A stretch of 36,183 bases of DNA from Minisyncoccia bacterium. GTDB lineage: Bacteria; Patescibacteriota; Minisyncoccia; Phycocordibacterales; JAKFXT01. Positions 1 to 20,162 of this stretch are shown here, piece by piece (positions within the stretch are counted from its first letter, which is position 1; the number at the start of each line of letters is the position of its first letter). The notes beneath the pieces were generated by a model that saw nothing but the letters and a program-made list of their open reading frames with translations, did no database searches and was not told where the DNA came from. The position numbers and the translations under genes were made by a program. The stretch spans positions 1 to 36,183 of the forward strand of contig JBGPJO010000006.1 in the NCBI GenBank assembly GCA_041485465.1, in the 5' to 3' direction.

Positions 1-928
1 AGCGTCCACTCGACCAGCTCCCCGTCAATTTCAAACCTTCAGGGCTGAATATAAAACGACGGAGTGGAAAGTCAGCGTTGTCCTTTTTATATTCGTTTAC
101 CTTGCGCCCTTTGTTTTTGAGTACACGCTGTACCTGCTCGAATAGGGCATCACTCACTATGGCCTCGAACAAACCCCTGTGGCTCTCCCCAAACTTCTCT
201 ATAAGGCGCGTATAAAGCCTATTACGCAACATTTCGCGAAAGTATTGGCTAGAGACAGGCTTACCACCCTTCACTTTCAAACCTTCTTTTACCATCCTGC
301 GCCAAACATCCTCCGTGGTGTATAAACCAGTGGCAACAAGCTGAAAGCTCTTTAGCACAAGGGGGGCCATTTCATTCGGCGCAATAGTAGGCTTGCCATT
401 TAACTGTGCTCCGTTTGAGTAACCAACTGGGGCTCCCCATACATATCGTCCATCGCGCACCGCTTCGCGCATACCGTTGGAGCATCTCTCGGCGCGTACG
501 TCGTTATCAAACTGGGCAATGTTTGCCATCGTATTTTCCATAAAGCGTCCAACAGGCGTATCTTCAATATTTTCTGATGTAGATTTTATTGCTACTCCAT
601 AACGCTTCAACAAGATACGGAGCTGGCTGTAGTCATCGGTTTTACGAGCGAGACGGTCTATCCTGTAAATAATGACTGCCGAGATGCCATTTTTCTTTTG
701 AGTGCAGTAAGCGAGCATTTTTTGGAGTTGTGTGCGGTTTGCTGTCTTTGCACTTTCGCCGCGCTCAATAAACACATCAGCCACATCGTAGCCATTTTTA
801 CTCGCGTACTCGCGGCAAGCTTTCTCCTGTGTGGCTAGAGAGTTGCCTTCTTCCGCTTGCTCTTTGGTGGAGACGCGCACGTAAATAATGACTCGTTTAT
901 TATTTGACTGGTTGTTTAATGGGCTCAT
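1..928 (-). CDS. Large serine recombinase (resolvase + recombinase domains), 3' end runs off the window
   Basis: Manual translation from ATG at 928: MSPLNNQSNNKRVIIYVRVSTKEQAEEGNSLATQEKAC... with catalytic YxRVS, then GESAKT, IYRIDRLAR, IAQFDND, GAPVGY and a recombinase-domain LRNRLY...EAIVSDALFEQVQ segment. Absent from the ORF track because there is no stop codon in the window. Confidence 0.95.
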   Translation of the reverse strand, partial: MSPLNNQSNNKRVIIYVRVSTKEQAEEGNSLATQEKACREYASKNGYDVADVFIERGESAKTANRTQLQKMLAYCTQKKNGISAVIIYRIDRLARKTDDYSQLRILLKRYGVAIKSTSENIEDTPVGRFMENTMANIAQFDNDVRAERCSNGMREAVRDGRYVWGAPVGYSNGAQLNGKPTIAPNEMAPLVLKSFQLVATGLYTTEDVWRRMVKEGLKVKGGKPVSSQYFREMLRNRLYTRLIEKFGESHRGLFEAIVSDALFEQVQRVLKNKGRKVNEYKKDNADFPLRRFIFSPEGLKLTGSWSSGR

Positions 929-1061
929 ACTTTTTTTGCTCTAAATAGGCTTCTACAAGCACTTTTGCTAGATATGCCAAAGCCTCATCTTCACGACTAA
1001 TTATACCGCCCTCGTGGGCAGGTAATTTATCGCTATCGGGCTGTTGATTGCGTGGGTGCAC
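900..1061 (-). CDS. Small hypothetical protein (53 aa) overlapping the recombinase start
   Basis: GTG at 1061 to TAA at 900-902: VHPRNQQPDSDKLPAHEGGIISREDEALAYLAKVLVEAYLEQKKYEPIKQPVK; amphipathic helix; below the ORF-track size cutoff. Confidence 0.45.
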   Translation of the reverse strand: MHPRNQQPDSDKLPAHEGGIISREDEALAYLAKVLVEAYLEQKKYEPIKQPVK

Positions 1062-1080
1062 GCGAGCGCGGGTTACTAAT

Positions 1081-1159
1081 AAAGCCCGCTCTTAGCTTGG
1101 CAGGTACCCTTGCAAGGCGACCCGCAAAGCTAAGAAGGGGCTTTGCTACGTGCAAGGGT
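1081..1159 (-). promoter_or_regulatory. Long hairpin with alternative or pseudoknot pairing in the recombinase leader
   Basis: AAAGCCC 1081-1087 / GGGCTTT 1138-1144; TCTTAGCTT 1090-1098 / AAGCTAAGA 1127-1135; apical ACCCTTGCA 1106-1114 is complementary to TGCAAGGGT 1151-1159. Confidence 0.6.
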
Positions 1160-1168
1160 TTTAGAGCC

Positions 1169-1198
1169 AAACAAAAAGAGCCTCGGGAGAAGGAGGCT
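1169..1198 (-). terminator. Putative intrinsic terminator or attenuator
   Basis: AGCCTC 1179-1184 / GAGGCT 1193-1198, followed on the minus strand by a T-rich tract. Confidence 0.5.
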
Positions 1199-1210
1199 TA
1201 GCTCTTAAAC

Positions 1211-1238
1211 GAAAAAGAGAAAAGCCTCTCAGCTTTTC
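1211..1238 (-). terminator. Putative intrinsic terminator or attenuator
   Basis: GAAAAGC 1219-1225 / GCTTTTC 1232-1238, followed on the minus strand by TCTTTTT. Confidence 0.5.
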
Positions 1239-1309
1239 CCGTGCGCTAGACGGAGGATTTTCACCCGGCCCTTTTCAGGGACGCGAACCTTTACAGGTAC
1301 TTACTCTAT

Positions 1310-1337
1310 ATTTTATCTCGGTAATGACATTTGGCAA
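1310..1337 (-). promoter_or_regulatory. Putative sigma70 promoter reading toward the recombinase
   Basis: Minus strand TTGCCA-N16-TAAAAT. Confidence 0.55.
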
Positions 1338-1389
1338 GTGTTTGGGCCTAGATTCCCATTTTTAAAAACTCGTGGTACTGTAACGACAC

Positions 1390-1585
1390 AACTGAATATG
1401 AAGCCGAAAGGCTAGTACCTAAACCGAAGACCTTCCGTCCTTGGCATGGTGCGAAATCGTTACGCACAGAAAACCCGTCATTTAGGGCGTGCGTAACGTT
1501 ATAGGGGGAAACTCCTATAGGGTCGCAAGACCTCCTAGTGGCGGGCTTTATGTTTGCAAAGCCAGCCACGTTTATCCATTCAGAC
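1390..1585 (+). ncRNA. Candidate highly structured ncRNA or leader RNA (multi-way junction), family not recognised
   Basis: Closing stem CTGAAT-ATGAA / TTTAT-cc-ATTCAG; hairpins GCC-GAAA-GGC, GTACC...GGTGC with CCTAAAC/GCATGG receptor-like loop, CGTTACGCAC/GTGCGTAACG, TATAGGGG-GAAA-CTCCTATA, GGTC-GCAA-GACC, GTGGC-GGCTTT/AAAGCC-GCCAC; upstream extended -10-like TGGTACTGT at 1373-1381. Confidence 0.7.
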
Positions 1586-1592
1586 GTATTTT

Positions 1593-1997
1593 ATGAATCG
1601 AAAAACTTGGTTTAGAAGAATTTGTGTAGGAGTAATTAGTCTTTTTGTATTTCTACCTTCTTTCGCTTTTGCCAAAACATGGACTACACCTTCAGGGGTG
1701 ATAGTGGATGATAATGGTCAAATTGTCTCCATTCCTTTAGAGGTGCAAATCAAGCTATTGCAGCAACAAATTTCTTCTCTTCAAGCCAAACTGGAGCAAA
1801 AAAATAAACGAGCTGAACCAAAAATTGTAGGCTCCATTGGAAATCTGGATGTATATCAGGATTTATTTGGTTTTTATATAGTAAATCCAACAACAGGGTG
1901 TAAATCACAAGTAAGGAAATCAGTGTCATCTGGGATTGAAGGTACCGGATGGAGATTCAGTGGTTATACTTCTTCGTGCCCTGAGAAAAAGAAATGA
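1593..1997 (+). CDS. Secreted hypothetical protein (signal peptide, short coiled coil, Cys pair)
   Basis: ATG at 1593 preferred over TTG 1554; MNRKTWFRR plus hydrophobic core ending AFA; LEVQIKLLQQQISSLQAKLEQ coiled coil. Confidence 0.75.
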   Translation: MNRKTWFRRICVGVISLFVFLPSFAFAKTWTTPSGVIVDDNGQIVSIPLEVQIKLLQQQISSLQAKLEQKNKRAEPKIVGSIGNLDVYQDLFGFYIVNPTTGCKSQVRKSVSSGIEGTGWRFSGYTSSCPEKKK

Positions 1998-1998
1998 A

Positions 1999-2217
1999 AT
2001 GTATATAACCTTTGATGGCTCTTTTGTGATGAGTGAACTAATGACAAGAACTTTTGTTGTTATCTACGTTGTATTATTTTTTGGATTTTGGATTTATCTC
2101 ACTAAAAAGAAAGGGTGGGCCTTTGAATGGGGTTTTTGCGGTGCCGGATTAATCGCTGGATTAATAACGGTATTTGTTCTGGAAGTAATAAAGTATATCT
2201 ATACCGGCGAGCTTTAA
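1999..2217 (+). CDS. Small two-TM membrane protein
   Basis: ATG at 1999, just after the upstream stop; two hydrophobic segments. Confidence 0.6.
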   Translation: MYITFDGSFVMSELMTRTFVVIYVVLFFGFWIYLTKKKGWAFEWGFCGAGLIAGLITVFVLEVIKYIYTGEL

Positions 2218-2302
2218 AAACGTAAGTTTGGTAGAACTGTACATCGAAAGAGAACACGGAAACAAAACTTGTGCAAAGAAAGGGGAAGAGTACAATACGG
2301 CC

Positions 2303-2920
2303 ATGCTTATATCAAATAGGGGCTTCCGAGCATTTACAGAGTACGACTTAGATGCAAATCTTCAAAACTTTATCACTCAACTCCGCAAAGAGATTGAGGC
2401 TGATTCAAGCATTACCACCACTGACGAAGAAGAGTATGTGCGACAAAAAGTAGTAGCAAAAACTTTAACGGGTATCGAGTTCGACACCTCCAATATCGCT
2501 GTCACACAACGCGAGGAAGAAATACCTTCTCGGTATTTCCCTAGCGGCTTTATGATAGATGAGGGGGAATCATACCCTAAGCCGATAATTACTTTTCATA
2601 TTCCGTTTACAGGGGATGAACAATTTCTTCACTGCAAGCCATCAACCATGCTTATGGTTTCAGATGAAGTAGATGTTGAAAGTGGTCATGTGATTTTCGA
2701 CATAATTAATTTCAGTAACAACGCCGAACAAGTTGCAAAACAGCGTGATGAGGTTGTTGGACATCTTACACAGAAAGCTGGTTTCTTAAATAAGGACATA
2801 GTGGCATACAACGGCCGTCTCGAGGGCATCGTACGGGATGCATTGAGAAATGCAAAAACCAAACATAAAGACCAGTCTGATTTTCTCGGCAAGCTTGGTA
2901 ATAAACCGAAGAATGGCTAA
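2303..2920 (+). CDS. Hypothetical protein with IPFTGD motif and helical C-terminus
   Basis: ATG 2303 lies 6 nt after TTGTGC-N16-TACAAT; overlaps the next gene by 8 nt. Confidence 0.75.
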   Translation: MLISNRGFRAFTEYDLDANLQNFITQLRKEIEADSSITTTDEEEYVRQKVVAKTLTGIEFDTSNIAVTQREEEIPSRYFPSGFMIDEGESYPKPIITFHIPFTGDEQFLHCKPSTMLMVSDEVDVESGHVIFDIINFSNNAEQVAKQRDEVVGHLTQKAGFLNKDIVAYNGRLEGIVRDALRNAKTKHKDQSDFLGKLGNKPKNG

Positions 2921-3779
2921 AAAGGATGTATCGGTGGACGAGAACCTCCTTGTAGAGGTAAACGGTGTTGTGCTTAGCAAAGAACAACAAGCTGTTTTGG
3001 AGCAAATAACTGGAGGAAATTGGAAAAAGTATGGTCGCGTGGCTATGGCAGCTATGGGCGCGTTGCCTTGGGTAGGAAGTATTATGGGTGCAGCCGCGAC
3101 GCTTTCAGCCGAGAACGAGCAAGGGAAAACTAATCACTTACTTTATTTATGGGTACAAGAGCATGAGGACAAGTTGCGGGCATTAATTGCCACTATGCAA
3201 AGTATCTTCGCCCGGCTGGAAACGTTCGGAGACGACATTCAAGCTCGGATTGAATCGCCGGAGTACTTGAACCTTGTACGCGAAACTTTTAGGATTTGGG
3301 ACGAAGCAGAGACGGGTGAGAAACGGGATATGCTCCGCAAGCTCATTACAAACGCGGGCGGTGTAAAGATTGTGCAAGACGATATAGTTCGTCTATTTTT
3401 GGATTTCTTGGAGAAGTTCCATGAGCTGCATTTTGCTGTGATACGAGAGATTTACGCCAAGCCGAGGATTACGCGAGGTGAGATTTGGGAGAACCTCGAC
3501 GAAGAGGACGCAGAAGAGTTCCCTAGAGAGGATTCTTCAAAAGCCGACCTCTTTAAACTTCTTATTATTGATTTAAGCACTGGTCTTGTTGTCCGTCAGG
3601 CGAGAATTACAGACGCCCACGGAAATTGGCAAAAGCAACCCGCTAGACGCAGGACTCGTGGAGGGGCGACAACGTCGGCATTCGATAGAGAGAAGGAGTA
3701 CGTCCTTACTGAGCTCGGAGCTGAATTTGTCCACTATGTAATGGAAGACCTTGCTCCCCAGTTAGGAAGTGGTAATTAA
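2913..3779 (+). CDS. Hypothetical protein, Abi-alpha/DUF4393-like
   Basis: ATG 2913 (MAKKDV); ALPWVGS, ESPEYLNLV...EKRDMLRKLITNA, LFLDFLEKF and terminal LTELGAEFV resemble Abi-alpha-type proteins. Family call from memory. Confidence 0.55.
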   Translation: MAKKDVSVDENLLVEVNGVVLSKEQQAVLEQITGGNWKKYGRVAMAAMGALPWVGSIMGAAATLSAENEQGKTNHLLYLWVQEHEDKLRALIATMQSIFARLETFGDDIQARIESPEYLNLVRETFRIWDEAETGEKRDMLRKLITNAGGVKIVQDDIVRLFLDFLEKFHELHFAVIREIYAKPRITRGEIWENLDEEDAEEFPREDSSKADLFKLLIIDLSTGLVVRQARITDAHGNWQKQPARRRTRGGATTSAFDREKEYVLTELGAEFVHYVMEDLAPQLGSGN

Positions 3780-4291
3780 GGTAATACTTCCGGTATATCA
3801 GCTCTGGTGATGCCAGCATGTTTGATGATTGCCCACTTTGTCTCAGTAGAGATGTACGGCTTACGGATAAGGCGTGATAGAGTTCGTGCCTTTCTGTTTG
3901 GTTGATGATAACCAAGCCGACAGCAAACACGACATAACGGCGAACGCAATGTGCTCTGTTCATACAAATACTTTACCCGCTTCTGACAGCCATTACAGAT
4001 AAAATACCAATTAAAGCCTTTACCTCGGCCAAGATTTGAAGGTACAAGAGCAAGTTTTTGCTGTCCCCAAAAGTATTCACCCGTCTGCATATCTCGGAGG
4101 GATTTTGATGACGTATTTTCAGACACATGTAGCAATTCTTGTAGATGTAAGGCTTCGCCAAGGTGATGGCCGCGAATAGTCCTGCCTTGTGTTTGTTCAA
4201 TGTGCCTAGTGAAAGCTCTGACATAGTCACTTGTGTTGATACGAGGTAAATCTTCGGAGAACCTGAGAGATGTATGTATGCTGGTGTACAT
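3776..4291 (-). CDS. Zn-finger hypothetical protein typical of mobile elements
   Basis: WYFICNGCQKRVKYLY...LCRVCCRLGYHQ provides two CxxC pairs. Confidence 0.75.
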   Translation of the reverse strand: MYTSIHTSLRFSEDLPRINTSDYVRAFTRHIEQTQGRTIRGHHLGEALHLQELLHVSENTSSKSLRDMQTGEYFWGQQKLALVPSNLGRGKGFNWYFICNGCQKRVKYLYEQSTLRSPLCRVCCRLGYHQPNRKARTLSRLIRKPYISTETKWAIIKHAGITRADIPEVLP

Positions 4292-4307
4292 AAACGCTAG
4301 TGAATCT

Positions 4308-4805
4308 CTAAGTCCGCGAGCCTGTTTCTTGTTCGTACACTTTCATATAAACCTTGCAGTCGAGACAATGTCGGAGCAGGTTGCTATGAGCGTGGGGGCA
4401 GGATTGTCCTCCATTTCCATATTCCCAACGCTCCTCGTACAGTTCAGGCCCGGTAAGCGTTGAGGCTCTTAATATGGCCTTTTCTGCTTGTGCCTTGTCC
4501 TTCATCATGGGGAGGGCAATATAAAGATTAGTCCATGGAGCTTCGCGGAGTGTTTCCTTAGGAAATCCCAGCTCTATGACGATACGCTTGTAGAGAGTGC
4601 AGAGCTTCGATGCGGTGCCTTTCTTCATCCCCATTTCTTCTAGAAACTCTTCCCAAGATGACCACCTTCCTCTCCACTTTTCTTCGGAGCGGATATTCCA
4701 GAGTCGCTCGGCAATTCCTACCATGCTCTCCCGATAGAACTGAATCGTATCAGCACAGTATTCCTGTTGGTTTATGATATTTTTTTCTTCTAATTTATTT
4801 TGCAT
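4308..4805 (-). CDS. Phage-like helical or DNA-binding hypothetical protein
   Basis: IAERLWNIR...WSSWEEFLEEMGMKKGTASKL resembles phage DUF3102-like proteins; C-terminal CPH...HCLDC possible metal site. Confidence 0.65.
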   Translation of the reverse strand: MQNKLEEKNIINQQEYCADTIQFYRESMVGIAERLWNIRSEEKWRGRWSSWEEFLEEMGMKKGTASKLCTLYKRIVIELGFPKETLREAPWTNLYIALPMMKDKAQAEKAILRASTLTGPELYEERWEYGNGGQSCPHAHSNLLRHCLDCKVYMKVYEQETGSRT

Positions 4806-4954
4806 ATAAGTTCTAATTTATTCGGGTAGTTATACAAGCACAAAATCGCCCTCGATAAGTAGGCTTTTTTCACTGTCTTGTAATATATCGCTAAGTTGGG
4901 CACACTCTAGAGCAAAGCGGTTCCAAAACGCTAAACTGGAGTCCACAAAATTAT

Positions 4955-5293
4955 ATGGAAGATCTCACCAAGAAAAAATGTGTACCATGTGAAGGAGGAG
5001 TTCCTTCATTTGAACCAAAACACGCTGACGAATATCTGCGCTACACCTCCGGCTGGAAAACCGTGGATTACAAAAGTATTGAGCGCGAATTTTTTTTCAA
5101 AGATTTCAAAGAGGCGATGGCTTTCATAAATAAAGTGGCGAAAATCGCTGAATCCGAAGGTCATCATCCCGATACCTATATTTTCTATAACAAAGTTCGC
5201 CTCGCGAATTCGACTCATGCCATCTCCGGCTTGTCCGAAAACGATTTTATTTTGGCTGCCAAAATAAACAAGCTTGTGCCTTTTGCTTCCTGA
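4955..5293 (+). CDS. phhB: Pterin-4-alpha-carbinolamine dehydratase (PCD/PhhB family)
   Basis: LTKKKCVPCEGG, FKDFKEAMAFINKVA, AESEGHHPD, THAISGLSENDFILAAKI. Confidence 0.92.
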   Translation: MEDLTKKKCVPCEGGVPSFEPKHADEYLRYTSGWKTVDYKSIEREFFFKDFKEAMAFINKVAKIAESEGHHPDTYIFYNKVRLANSTHAISGLSENDFILAAKINKLVPFAS

Positions 5294-5356
5294 AAATTCA
5301 GCGGTAAATAAAAAGGGTCCACCTTGAGTTTTCCCATACGTTATAATAGAGGAAAC

Positions 5357-6121
5357 ATGGAATCTTTTGAGCTCATTGCTTTTGATGTTGATGGAACTCT
5401 TACTTCGAGTAAAATGCCTCTTGATTCTGAAATGGCGCGCCTTTTATGCGATCTATCGTTACAGAAAAAAATTGCTGCAACTTCCGGGGCTTCATTCGGG
5501 CAATTTGAAAAACAGTTTTTGCCTTATCTATCATGTGGTTCAGAGTCGTTGAGGAATCTTTATTTATTACCAACGAATGGAGCGAGTCTCTATCAATACG
5601 GGGACGATGGGCATTCCTGGAGGGCAATGTACGATCACACACTATCTGAGAGCGAGAAGAAAGAAATATTTGAGGGCTTTGAAAAAGCATTTAAGAATAC
5701 TCATTTCAAAAAAACTGAAATCATCTACGGAGTTCTTCTCGAAGATCGTGGTAGTCAAATAACGTTCTCTGGGCTTGGCAGTACCGCCCCTCTTTCTCTT
5801 AAGGAGGAGTGGGATCTTGAAAGAACAAAAAGGACACCTATCGCTAATGAACTTCGCATAGTATTACCCGGATATAGCATCAGTATAGGCGGAACAACGT
5901 CTATAGATGTCACGAAGAAAGGAATTGATAAGGCATACGGACTGAAGAGCCTTATGAAATATCTCAATCTTTCCAAAGAGAAGGTATTGTATGTTGGGGA
6001 CGCTTTATTTCCTGGGGGAAATGATGCTGTTGTCATACCGGTTGGGGTCACCTGTCAGCCAGTAAAAAACCTTGAGGAAACGAAAAGACTTATCCGCAGT
6101 CTCTTACTCAAAATGGCCTGA
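5357..6121 (+). CDS. HAD-IIB hydrolase, phosphomannomutase (PMM/Sec53-like)
   Basis: Motif I FDVDGTL, EDRGSQITFS, IGGTTSIDVT, GIDKAYG, VGDALFPGGND; ATG 5357 follows TATAAT 5342-5347. Confidence 0.85.
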   Translation: MESFELIAFDVDGTLTSSKMPLDSEMARLLCDLSLQKKIAATSGASFGQFEKQFLPYLSCGSESLRNLYLLPTNGASLYQYGDDGHSWRAMYDHTLSESEKKEIFEGFEKAFKNTHFKKTEIIYGVLLEDRGSQITFSGLGSTAPLSLKEEWDLERTKRTPIANELRIVLPGYSISIGGTTSIDVTKKGIDKAYGLKSLMKYLNLSKEKVLYVGDALFPGGNDAVVIPVGVTCQPVKNLEETKRLIRSLLLKMA

Positions 6122-13909: not shown

Positions 13910-13982
13910 GGGCCGTTAGCTCAGTTGGTAGAGCGCATCCATGGCATGGATGAGGTCAGCGGTTCAATCCCGCTACGGTCCA
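13910..13982 (+). tRNA. tRNA-Ala(GGC)
   Basis: Acceptor GGGCCGT/ACGGTCC with G3:U70; anticodon arm CATCC-ATGGCAT-GGATG; T-loop TTCAATC; CCA not encoded. Confidence 0.95.
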
Positions 13983-19818: not shown

Positions 19819-19891
19819 GCACCCTTAGCTCAGTTGGTAGAGCGTTCCCTTCACACGGGAAAGGTCATAGGTTCGAATCCTATAGGGTGCA
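19819..19891 (+). tRNA. tRNA-Val(CAC)
   Basis: Acceptor GCACCCT/AGGGTGC; anticodon arm TTCCC-TTCACAC-GGGAA; T-arm ATAGG-TTCGAAT-CCTAT. Confidence 0.95.
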
Positions 19892-19993
19892 CCGGTCTTT
19901 GCGAAAGTTTATTAAGTTTCAAAAGTGATGTAGAGTGGTGAGGTTTTGAAAAGGGAAGAGATGAGTATAATTATTTCCGATTGAGCGCTCAGT

Positions 19994-20064
19994 CGGGGTG
20001 TAGTACAGGGGTAGTATACACGCTTCGGGTGCGTGAGACCCGAGTTCGATTCTCGGCACCCCGA
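19994..20064 (+). tRNA. tRNA-Pro(CGG)
   Basis: Acceptor CGGGGTG/CACCCCG; anticodon arm CACGC-TTCGGGT-GCGTG; T-arm CCGAG-TTCGATT-CTCGG; TATAAT at 19966-19971. Confidence 0.93.
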
Positions 20065-20091
20065 CTAAGCGCTCAACCCCGTCTACATGAG

Positions 20092-20162
20092 GGGCCTATA
20101 GTTCAGTGGTAAAACGCCGCATTCGCATTGCGGAGGCGGGGGTTCGATTCCCCCTAGGTCCA
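20092..20162 (+). tRNA. tRNA-Ala(CGC)
   Basis: Acceptor GGGCCTA/TAGGTCC with G3:U70; anticodon arm CCGCA-TTCGCAT-TGCGG; T-arm GGGGG-TTCGATT-CCCCC. Confidence 0.93.

Follow-up and report, generated by a model that had tools for sequence, protein, structure and literature searches.

The RNA motif LOOT was introduced in a survey of 224 motifs (PMC5737381), appears as a 'metagenomic-based' family in PMC7779021 (legend to Figure 1) and is credited in PMC7657543 with about 43 base pairs, six helices and many cross-covariations. Rfam assigns it the type 'Gene; sRNA', and our literature search found no functional study of it; the supplement of PMC5737381, in which the original description lies, may hold more and may already cover some of the features that we place outside the Rfam model below. 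LOOT has stood since 2017 as an orphan, catalogued as a metagenome-only small RNA that lacks a function. Its nearest counterparts in setting are GOLLD and ROOL, which are likewise structured orphan RNAs on phage-like DNA, whereas LOOT is far smaller (about 120-170 nt), lies directly before a gene and has a terminator-like end; an Rfam scan of 850-1750 at E up to 1 found no sequence or model similarity to either of the two.

The DNA analysed here, which we call the window, is a stretch of 36,183 nucleotides from a Minisyncoccia bacterium. Searching the whole window with Rfam 15 identified 1416-1533 of the + strand as LOOT (RF03000), matched over model positions 1-121 of 121 with 72.8 bits as compared to a gathering score of 46.4, and a permissive scan of 850-1750 returned the family with E = 1.3e-13. 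An earlier note, made from the letters of this DNA alone, had described the surrounding 1390-1585 as an unrecognised structured RNA and had proposed an Rfam search as the check on its novelty; that search returned this strong match, and since the match covers the full model above the gathering score, the novelty of the RNA falls. It is close to certain that the structured element at 1390-1585 is LOOT RNA, a further copy of a known orphan family and no new family, and the note was accurate in its description of the structure and wrong in its claim of novelty.

The copy in the window is the only one in its 646-kb, 97.5%-complete genome. It shares with the family all 121 model positions, including the receptor-like loop of P1, the long P3, the GAAA-capped P4 and the capped P5, and shows no difference in the core. 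Beyond what the model covers, the window has in addition an optional GAAA hairpin at 1402-1413, a 5' box, a long-range helix with a U-run and a local 3' hairpin. The interesting part of the finding is the family-level evidence for a proposed split-terminator leader before mobile-element cargo of CPR bacteria. Rfam files LOOT as a small RNA gene, yet here and in 45 of 50 relatives it occupies the position of a leader.

In the order to which the window belongs, 17 of 61 genomes carry LOOT, in its class 29 of 151 and in its phylum 30 of 151, or roughly one in five of the small genomes sampled over order, class and phylum; of 14 control genomes none does. Carrier genomes, all of 0.5-1.3 Mb, hold one to four copies. 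For a 554-aa protein of the window the closest named relative, 54% identical, comes from a Candidatus Wolfebacteria assembly, which makes the host a CPR bacterium. Twelve true copies, confirmed with Rfam, lie on IMG/VR viral contigs, out of 35 stretches matched by a three-word pattern scan, and one of them (L063) closely resembles the window copy down to the extra 5' hairpin. The same pattern also picked up a group I intron (107.2 bits) on another viral contig (L082, 395-683, - strand); the combination of receptor and GAAA loop is therefore not specific to LOOT. The comparisons that follow use 50 oriented loci, namely the window, 19 loci that the search of the order had yielded and 30 copies out of that of the class (29 further loci and the second copy of L027), and the statistics on helices and covariation come from a sequence-only MAFFT alignment of these.

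Folding 1390-1585 on the + strand gave -78.6 kcal/mol (z = -6.05, with none of 200 dinucleotide shuffles as good) and on the - strand -73.5 kcal/mol (z = -4.5), energies which, like the duplex energies given below, ignore pseudoknot topology and tertiary contacts. All six hairpins that had been read from the letters appear in the minimum-energy fold of the + strand (1402-1413, 1415-1452, 1458-1498, 1500-1519, 1520-1534 and 1538-1569), as do their three GNRA caps (GAAA at 1406-1409, GAAA at 1508-1511 and GCAA at 1525-1528), and the receptor-like motif, the extended -10 site and the ATG at 1593 are all present in the sequence. Covariation among homologs, on which the note had suggested that the RNA be judged, is seen in P1, P4 and P5, whose pairs are kept by compensatory changes over the 50 sequences; the three helices are 89-94% paired, with such changes in nearly every pair. 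For the whole structure 86.2% of pairs are kept as compared to 65.1% in shuffles and 0 of 500 shuffles reach the observed values, a comparison that, like those of own with foreign partners below, overstates independence since the 50 loci are related to each other. Sliding the helix partners against one another drops the pairing from 86% to 37-47%.

P1 (1416-1451) carries an internal loop that resembles a tetraloop receptor (CCTAAA at 1418-1423 and CATGG at 1445-1449), and both the invariant columns and the covariation of the alignment define it: CTAA and A.G of this motif are invariant over the 50 sequences, and the two helices of P1 are 92.5% and 93.6% paired with compensatory changes. The 11-nt motif that it resembles is a receptor for GAAA tetraloops. 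In the form quoted in the earlier note, CCUAA...AUGG of the receptor is kept in LOOT, whereas its G/U position is A/C in 33 of 50 loci (CCTAAA/CATGG, the window's form) or C/U in 10 of 50 (CCTAAC/TATGG), both sides changing together. The proposed partner of this loop is P4, a hairpin at 1500-1519 evident in both the fold and the covariation, whose loop (1508-1511) reads GAAA in 48 or more of the 50 loci and whose helix is 88.9% paired with compensatory changes in eight of eight pairs; docking of the two is predicted. The notion of a tertiary-type fold on the + strand holds up: nowhere is the family more strongly conserved than in the receptor-like motif and in P4's GAAA loop.

A contig from the sediment run X3 differs from the window within P4 at 1502 (T>C) together with 1517 (A>G), turning U-A into C-G, and at 1506 (G>A), turning G-U into A-U; these differences are compensatory, and the contig, a single one of depth 2, may be another organism's copy. 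Four DNA sequencing runs compared with 1-5400 yielded just short contigs of low depth and no joints, and they bear on neither mobility nor transcription.

P5 (1520-1534), likewise defined by fold and covariation, is 91.5% paired and is capped in the window by GCAA (1525-1528), the loop varying among the 50 loci (GAAA in 23, GCAA in 15, TTCG in five, and others). The remaining GNRA-capped hairpin, which we call P0 (1402-1413, GAAA at 1406-1409), follows the 5' box and precedes the part that the Rfam model covers, and small GNRA-capped hairpins with other stem sequences occur at this place in L010, L020, L035 and the viral L063. As family traits, then, P1, P3, P4 and P5 stand, and P0 is only optional.

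Two further pairings suggested from the letters did not survive comparison. The closing stem that was thought to enclose the hairpins amounts to six pairs in the minimum-energy fold (1392-1397 with 1578-1583) and is at chance level, with -6.6 kcal/mol and z = -0.45 against shuffles in the window and a mean z of +0.15 over the 37 loci that have the 5' box. The alternative pairing of CCTAAA with TTTAGG is not conserved either: the TTAGG-like word that it needs is present in the P3 region of four of 50 loci, and L014, the nearest relative, is the sole locus besides the window to have it within the loop.

Ribozymes are often built around a tetraloop and its receptor, and a self-cleaving or otherwise catalytic RNA, which the note had entertained, would be at home with such an architecture. 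We consider such an activity very improbable, as 850-1750 matches none of the known ribozyme models of Rfam at E up to 1, the permissive scan returning only LOOT and a match to mir-19 at 1084-1141 (E = 0.63) that is noise; besides the receptor and the GAAA loop there is no invariant unpaired core, and the loci carry no mark of a processing site. Beyond the shared architecture nothing was found in favour of a ribozyme.

Upstream of the fold the window reads TG-n-TACTGT at 1373-1381 (+), an extended -10 element that is kept in the family. Within 20 nt upstream of the conserved 5' box, TAnnnT is found in every one of the 37 box-bearing loci, at a distance of 6-8 nt in most, and takes the extended form TGnTAnnnT in 24 of them, so that the site noticed from the letters is confirmed as LOOT's own conserved promoter element. 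A simple sigma-70 scan found no -35 match for it and for this reason omits the element. The box itself, ACAACTGAATA at 1388-1398 (+), is an exact match in the window to the consensus ACAAYTNAATA, which is present with at most three mismatches in 37 of 50 loci and with at most one in 16 of 50. Because of its spacing to the -10 element we place the start of transcription at the box, which would then form the 5' end of the transcript. In their intergenic regions, the window and L014, its closest relative, have only promoter and box in common.

P3 (1458-1498) is made up of a basal stem (1458-1467 with 1489-1498) and an apical hairpin, P3b, in which CCC at 1474-1476 pairs with GGG at 1485-1487. Its 10-nt arms are fully complementary in the window (10 of 10), and since the MAFFT alignment loses the register of the basal stem (65.8% paired), we took P3 from the Rfam model and not from the alignment. 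P3b is found with at least three pairs in 49 of 50 loci, at a mean of -4.8 kcal/mol as compared to -1.5 kcal/mol for shuffles (mean z = -2.4).

The loop of P3 also takes part in a second, much longer pairing, which lies outside the Rfam model and which RNAalifold chose unprompted from the sequence-only alignment of the 50 loci. An A-rich tract together with the P3 loop (1466-1481, alignment columns 132-147) pairs with 1538-1553, a strand that runs into the U-run TTTATGTTT (1547-1555). Over the 13 pairs of this long-range helix 93.1% of the cells are paired and 12 pairs show compensatory changes, one of them, for example, being CG in 16 loci, GC in 15 and AU in 10. Duplexes formed within a locus average -29.5 kcal/mol and those with foreign partners -18.1 kcal/mol; 24 of 50 loci have no foreign partner that equals their own, and the helix forms in 12 of 12 viral-contig copies. 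In the window the duplex has -22.1 or -20.7 kcal/mol in two separate calculations.

One locus, L038, is devoid of the long-range partner segment, and there 43 of 49 foreign partners equal or exceed its own in pairing. Its core (oriented 1278-1402) is identical to those of the viral L071 and L079, and the sequence after P5 differs; it is either a natural variant that does without the terminator-like helix or a rearranged locus.

With its A-tract, G+C-rich stem and U-tract the long-range helix looks like an intrinsic terminator. It is, in the window, no simple hairpin and ends 1 nt before TTTATGTTT; a simple pattern scan listed no + strand terminator at LOOT, and the U-run is interrupted. Covariation reaches into the U-run, whose positions change in step with those of the A-tract (columns 135:241 and 138:238 are examples), and this agrees with a structural helix no less than with a plain terminator tail. 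As its 5' half sits inside the P3 loop, the helix crosses P3, and it shares bases 1474-1481 with P3b (1474-1487). The two conserved pairings are thus mutually exclusive in these bases and compete for the same loop.

The crossing of two conserved elements, P3 and the long-range helix, would also be expected of a static pseudoknot in which both form together and which acts constitutively in cis, for example as an element for polymerase-modifying antitermination, an mRNA stabiliser or a protein-binding site. Antitermination elements that modify the polymerase include the phage put RNA and the EAR element, and LOOT, too, is promoter-proximal and stands ahead of varied cargo operons of mobile elements; the covariation inside the U-run moreover points to selection for pairing. 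Against this arrangement, a helix of at least 13 pairs that uses nearly all of the P3 loop would be sterically hard to accommodate with P3 closed, and the conservation of P3b along with alternative partners after the U-run is what one expects of alternative folds. We regard a static leader as improbable, and a leader that changes its fold as the better account of the competing pairings.

Such an alternative partner is seen in the window just past the U-run, where the 3' strand of the long-range helix can pair with 1558-1569 instead, forming the sixth hairpin of the minimum-energy fold (1538-1569 (+), -17.3 kcal/mol). A comparable local partner is found in about 18-20 of 50 loci, and as a family-wide feature it was rejected, own-locus partners averaging -10.0 kcal/mol and foreign ones -8.7 kcal/mol, a weak difference. 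The hairpin read from the letters is hence real in the window and is no family-wide feature.

The gene that follows (1593-1997, +) encodes a protein of 134 aa whose N-terminal segment resembles a signal peptide, with a hydrophobic segment score of 2.42 at residue 9; none of the six cargo ORFs at 1593-4805, of which this is the first, has a match in Pfam or PHROGs. With ORFs called by simple rules, 45 of the 50 loci have an ORF of 45 aa or more that is on the strand of LOOT and begins 33-126 nt behind it, as compared to 14 when the opposite strand of these bases is read, and 31 of these downstream ORFs are at least 100 aa long. The gap between LOOT and the gene leaves no room for a separate promoter. 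A strongly hydrophobic segment within the first 70 residues marks 29 of 50 downstream proteins, the window's included, as compared to 2 of 47 upstream neighbours, and by this feature of their predicted sequences the 29 would be membrane or secreted proteins.

Pfam names 19 of the 50 downstream proteins, among them superinfection immunity proteins (three), N6/N4 DNA methylases (three, two of them with an Mrr domain), nucleases, FemAB, DUF4352 and zinc-ribbon (membrane) proteins. Their functions are mixed and over the 50 loci do not point to one pathway or ligand, the N-terminal hydrophobic segment being the sole common trait. One protein recurs behind LOOT: in L003, L005, L009 and L018 related proteins of 246-269 aa with shared N-terminal motifs are encoded directly after the RNA, and no Pfam family was found for them.

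The constraint extends to the start codon. An exact copy, at least 9 nt long, of the 5' strand of P3 is present downstream in 17 of 50 loci as compared to 73 of 2450 cross-locus pairs, and in 16 of the 17 it ends between -1 and 7 nt before the start codon. Judged by energy, 18 of 45 loci allow a pairing of -12 kcal/mol or stronger between the start region and the 3' strand of P3, as compared to 152 of 1980 cross-locus pairs. The window itself has no such copy, the longest shared word being 5 nt, and its own pairing of these two parts has -8.8 kcal/mol, ranks 14th of 44 and ends 18 nt before the ATG.

These observations bear on whether LOOT is a free small RNA of about 165 nt that has its own promoter and terminator and acts in trans, the gene behind it being expressed by leak-through or being unrelated. 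That is the sense of the Rfam type. Conservation of both promoter and terminator-like end speaks for it, as does a pairing of A-tract and U-run of the kind seen in stable released RNAs, and the long-range helix is kept in the five of 50 loci that have no ORF within 130 nt. It does not sit well with the same-strand ORF that in 45 of 50 loci follows within 33-126 nt with no promoter room, nor with the constraint past the U-run, where the copy of the P3 strand keeps a fixed distance to the start codon in 16-18 loci. A leader acting in cis fits better because of the short gap that holds no promoter, the competing pairings and the copies at the start codon, and we consider the free RNA rather unlikely. 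Of the possibilities raised in the note, the riboswitch-like leader is accordingly to be preferred to a free RNA gene, given the position before a gene and the mutually exclusive pairings.

Divergent from LOOT, the window begins with a serine recombinase gene (2-928, -) that is cut by the start of the contig and matches Pfam Resolvase (E = 3.4e-35), Recombinase (E = 1e-5) and the integrase PHROG 95 (E = 9.9e-63); as the contig starts inside this gene, the ends of the mobile element are unseen. Taking as upstream neighbour the nearest ORF of at least 90 aa, a script rule that gave a neighbour in 47 loci and none in three, a serine recombinase was found in 11 of 47, eight of the 11 being divergent as in the window. 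ParB-domain proteins take this place in four of 47 loci, three of them also matching the N6/N4 DNA methylase family, and a terminase, an OLD-type ATPase, a restriction enzyme and a methylase do so in single loci. The mobile-element setting proposed for the window RNA is borne out by the recombinases and by the 12 copies on viral contigs.

It could be imagined that the conserved stretch serves the recombinase itself, as an attachment site in the DNA or as an RNA that guides or regulates recombination, all the more so as the leader of the recombinase carries at 1079-1089 a perfect 11-nt inverted copy of 1541-1551. We give this next to no credence: in 36 of 47 loci the upstream neighbour is another gene, compensatory changes that include G-U pairs point to RNA and not to DNA, the repeat is near chance and has no counterpart in L014, and with the contig beginning within the recombinase gene the ends of the element are out of view. 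By virtue of the repeat, the - strand leader of the recombinase carries the letters of the long-range 3' strand and U-run; in a region of 800 nt about 0.08 such repeats are expected by chance, and we rejected it as meaningful, it being probably a coincidence between two terminator-like sequences.

A long structured leader on the - strand (1055-1337) seems to belong to the recombinase operon itself: at 1337-1310 a site resembles a promoter in 10 of 12 positions, two hairpins (1240-1217 and 1198-1179) resemble terminators, and an imperfect palindrome has 32-nt arms (1081-1144); the fold of 1055-1310 has z = -4.3, and the region is not conserved in L014. Overlapping the start of the recombinase gene is an ORF of 53 aa (900-1061, -), which has a conserved counterpart (22 identities in 33 residues, E = 3e-15) next to L014's related recombinase, belongs to no Pfam or PHROGs family and, judged from this conservation, may encode a small partner protein of the recombinase. 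Far from LOOT, the window also has four tRNA genes, at 13910-13982 and 19819-20162 (+), three of them within 350 nt.

Based on these data we propose, at about an even chance, that LOOT is a cis-acting leader with a split terminator that probably gates the downstream gene for a secreted protein. Situated inside a serine-recombinase mobile element of a CPR bacterium, the leader would have its own extended -10 promoter, from which transcription would set in near 1388 and continue into the 134-aa gene at 1593. A compact core, made up of the receptor-like loop of P1, the GAAA loop of P4 and P5, would hold P3, the loop of which could either form the small local hairpin P3b (1474-1487) or give 1466-1481 to the much stronger long-range helix with 1538-1553, an intrinsic-terminator-like structure whose 5' half is buried in the P3 loop. 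If the core and P3b are stabilised as the polymerase passes the U-run, transcription would read through into the gene; if the loop is captured by 1538-1553 instead, it would end near 1553-1557. In about 40% of the relatives the 3' strand of P3 could in addition cover the start-codon copy as a second lock, and in the window, where that copy is absent, the 3' strand of the terminator would have the local partner 1558-1569 instead.

As to what might trigger the switch, a metabolite ligand is disfavoured because the downstream cargo is mixed, and a protein, an RNA, an ion or a general signal are the candidates that remain. More tentatively, and with rather less confidence than in the leader itself, we suggest that LOOT represents a so far unrecognised class of cis-acting RNA switches specific to CPR mobile elements and phages, which would gate cargo (mostly envelope proteins and defence enzymes) through a terminator with its 5' half hidden in a hairpin loop of a sensor domain folded by tetraloop and receptor, the trigger being a ligand, a protein or an RNA by which the condition of host or element is signalled. 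To our knowledge, very little is known about gene regulation in CPR bacteria. The distribution of LOOT, its viral copies, its placement immediately before genes for membrane proteins and defence and the conserved long-range helix together offer a testable hypothesis on how mobile elements of these bacteria control their cargo.

Compared with riboswitches, LOOT displays a folded domain with mutually exclusive pairings tied to an expression signal, and the genes behind its 50 loci do not share a pathway or ligand. Terminating riboswitches and attenuators are built on a similar platform, in which a folded domain is followed by a G+C-rich helix with a U-run and directly thereafter by the gene, and as in attenuators a small hairpin and a terminator-like helix are predicted to compete for the same bases. 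LOOT differs from riboswitch platforms in the mixed nature of its downstream genes and in the layout of its terminator, the 5' half of which lies in a hairpin loop about 60 nt upstream, so that the helix forms a pseudoknot across P3 and the 3' strand of P3, P4 and P5 all lie between the two terminator halves.
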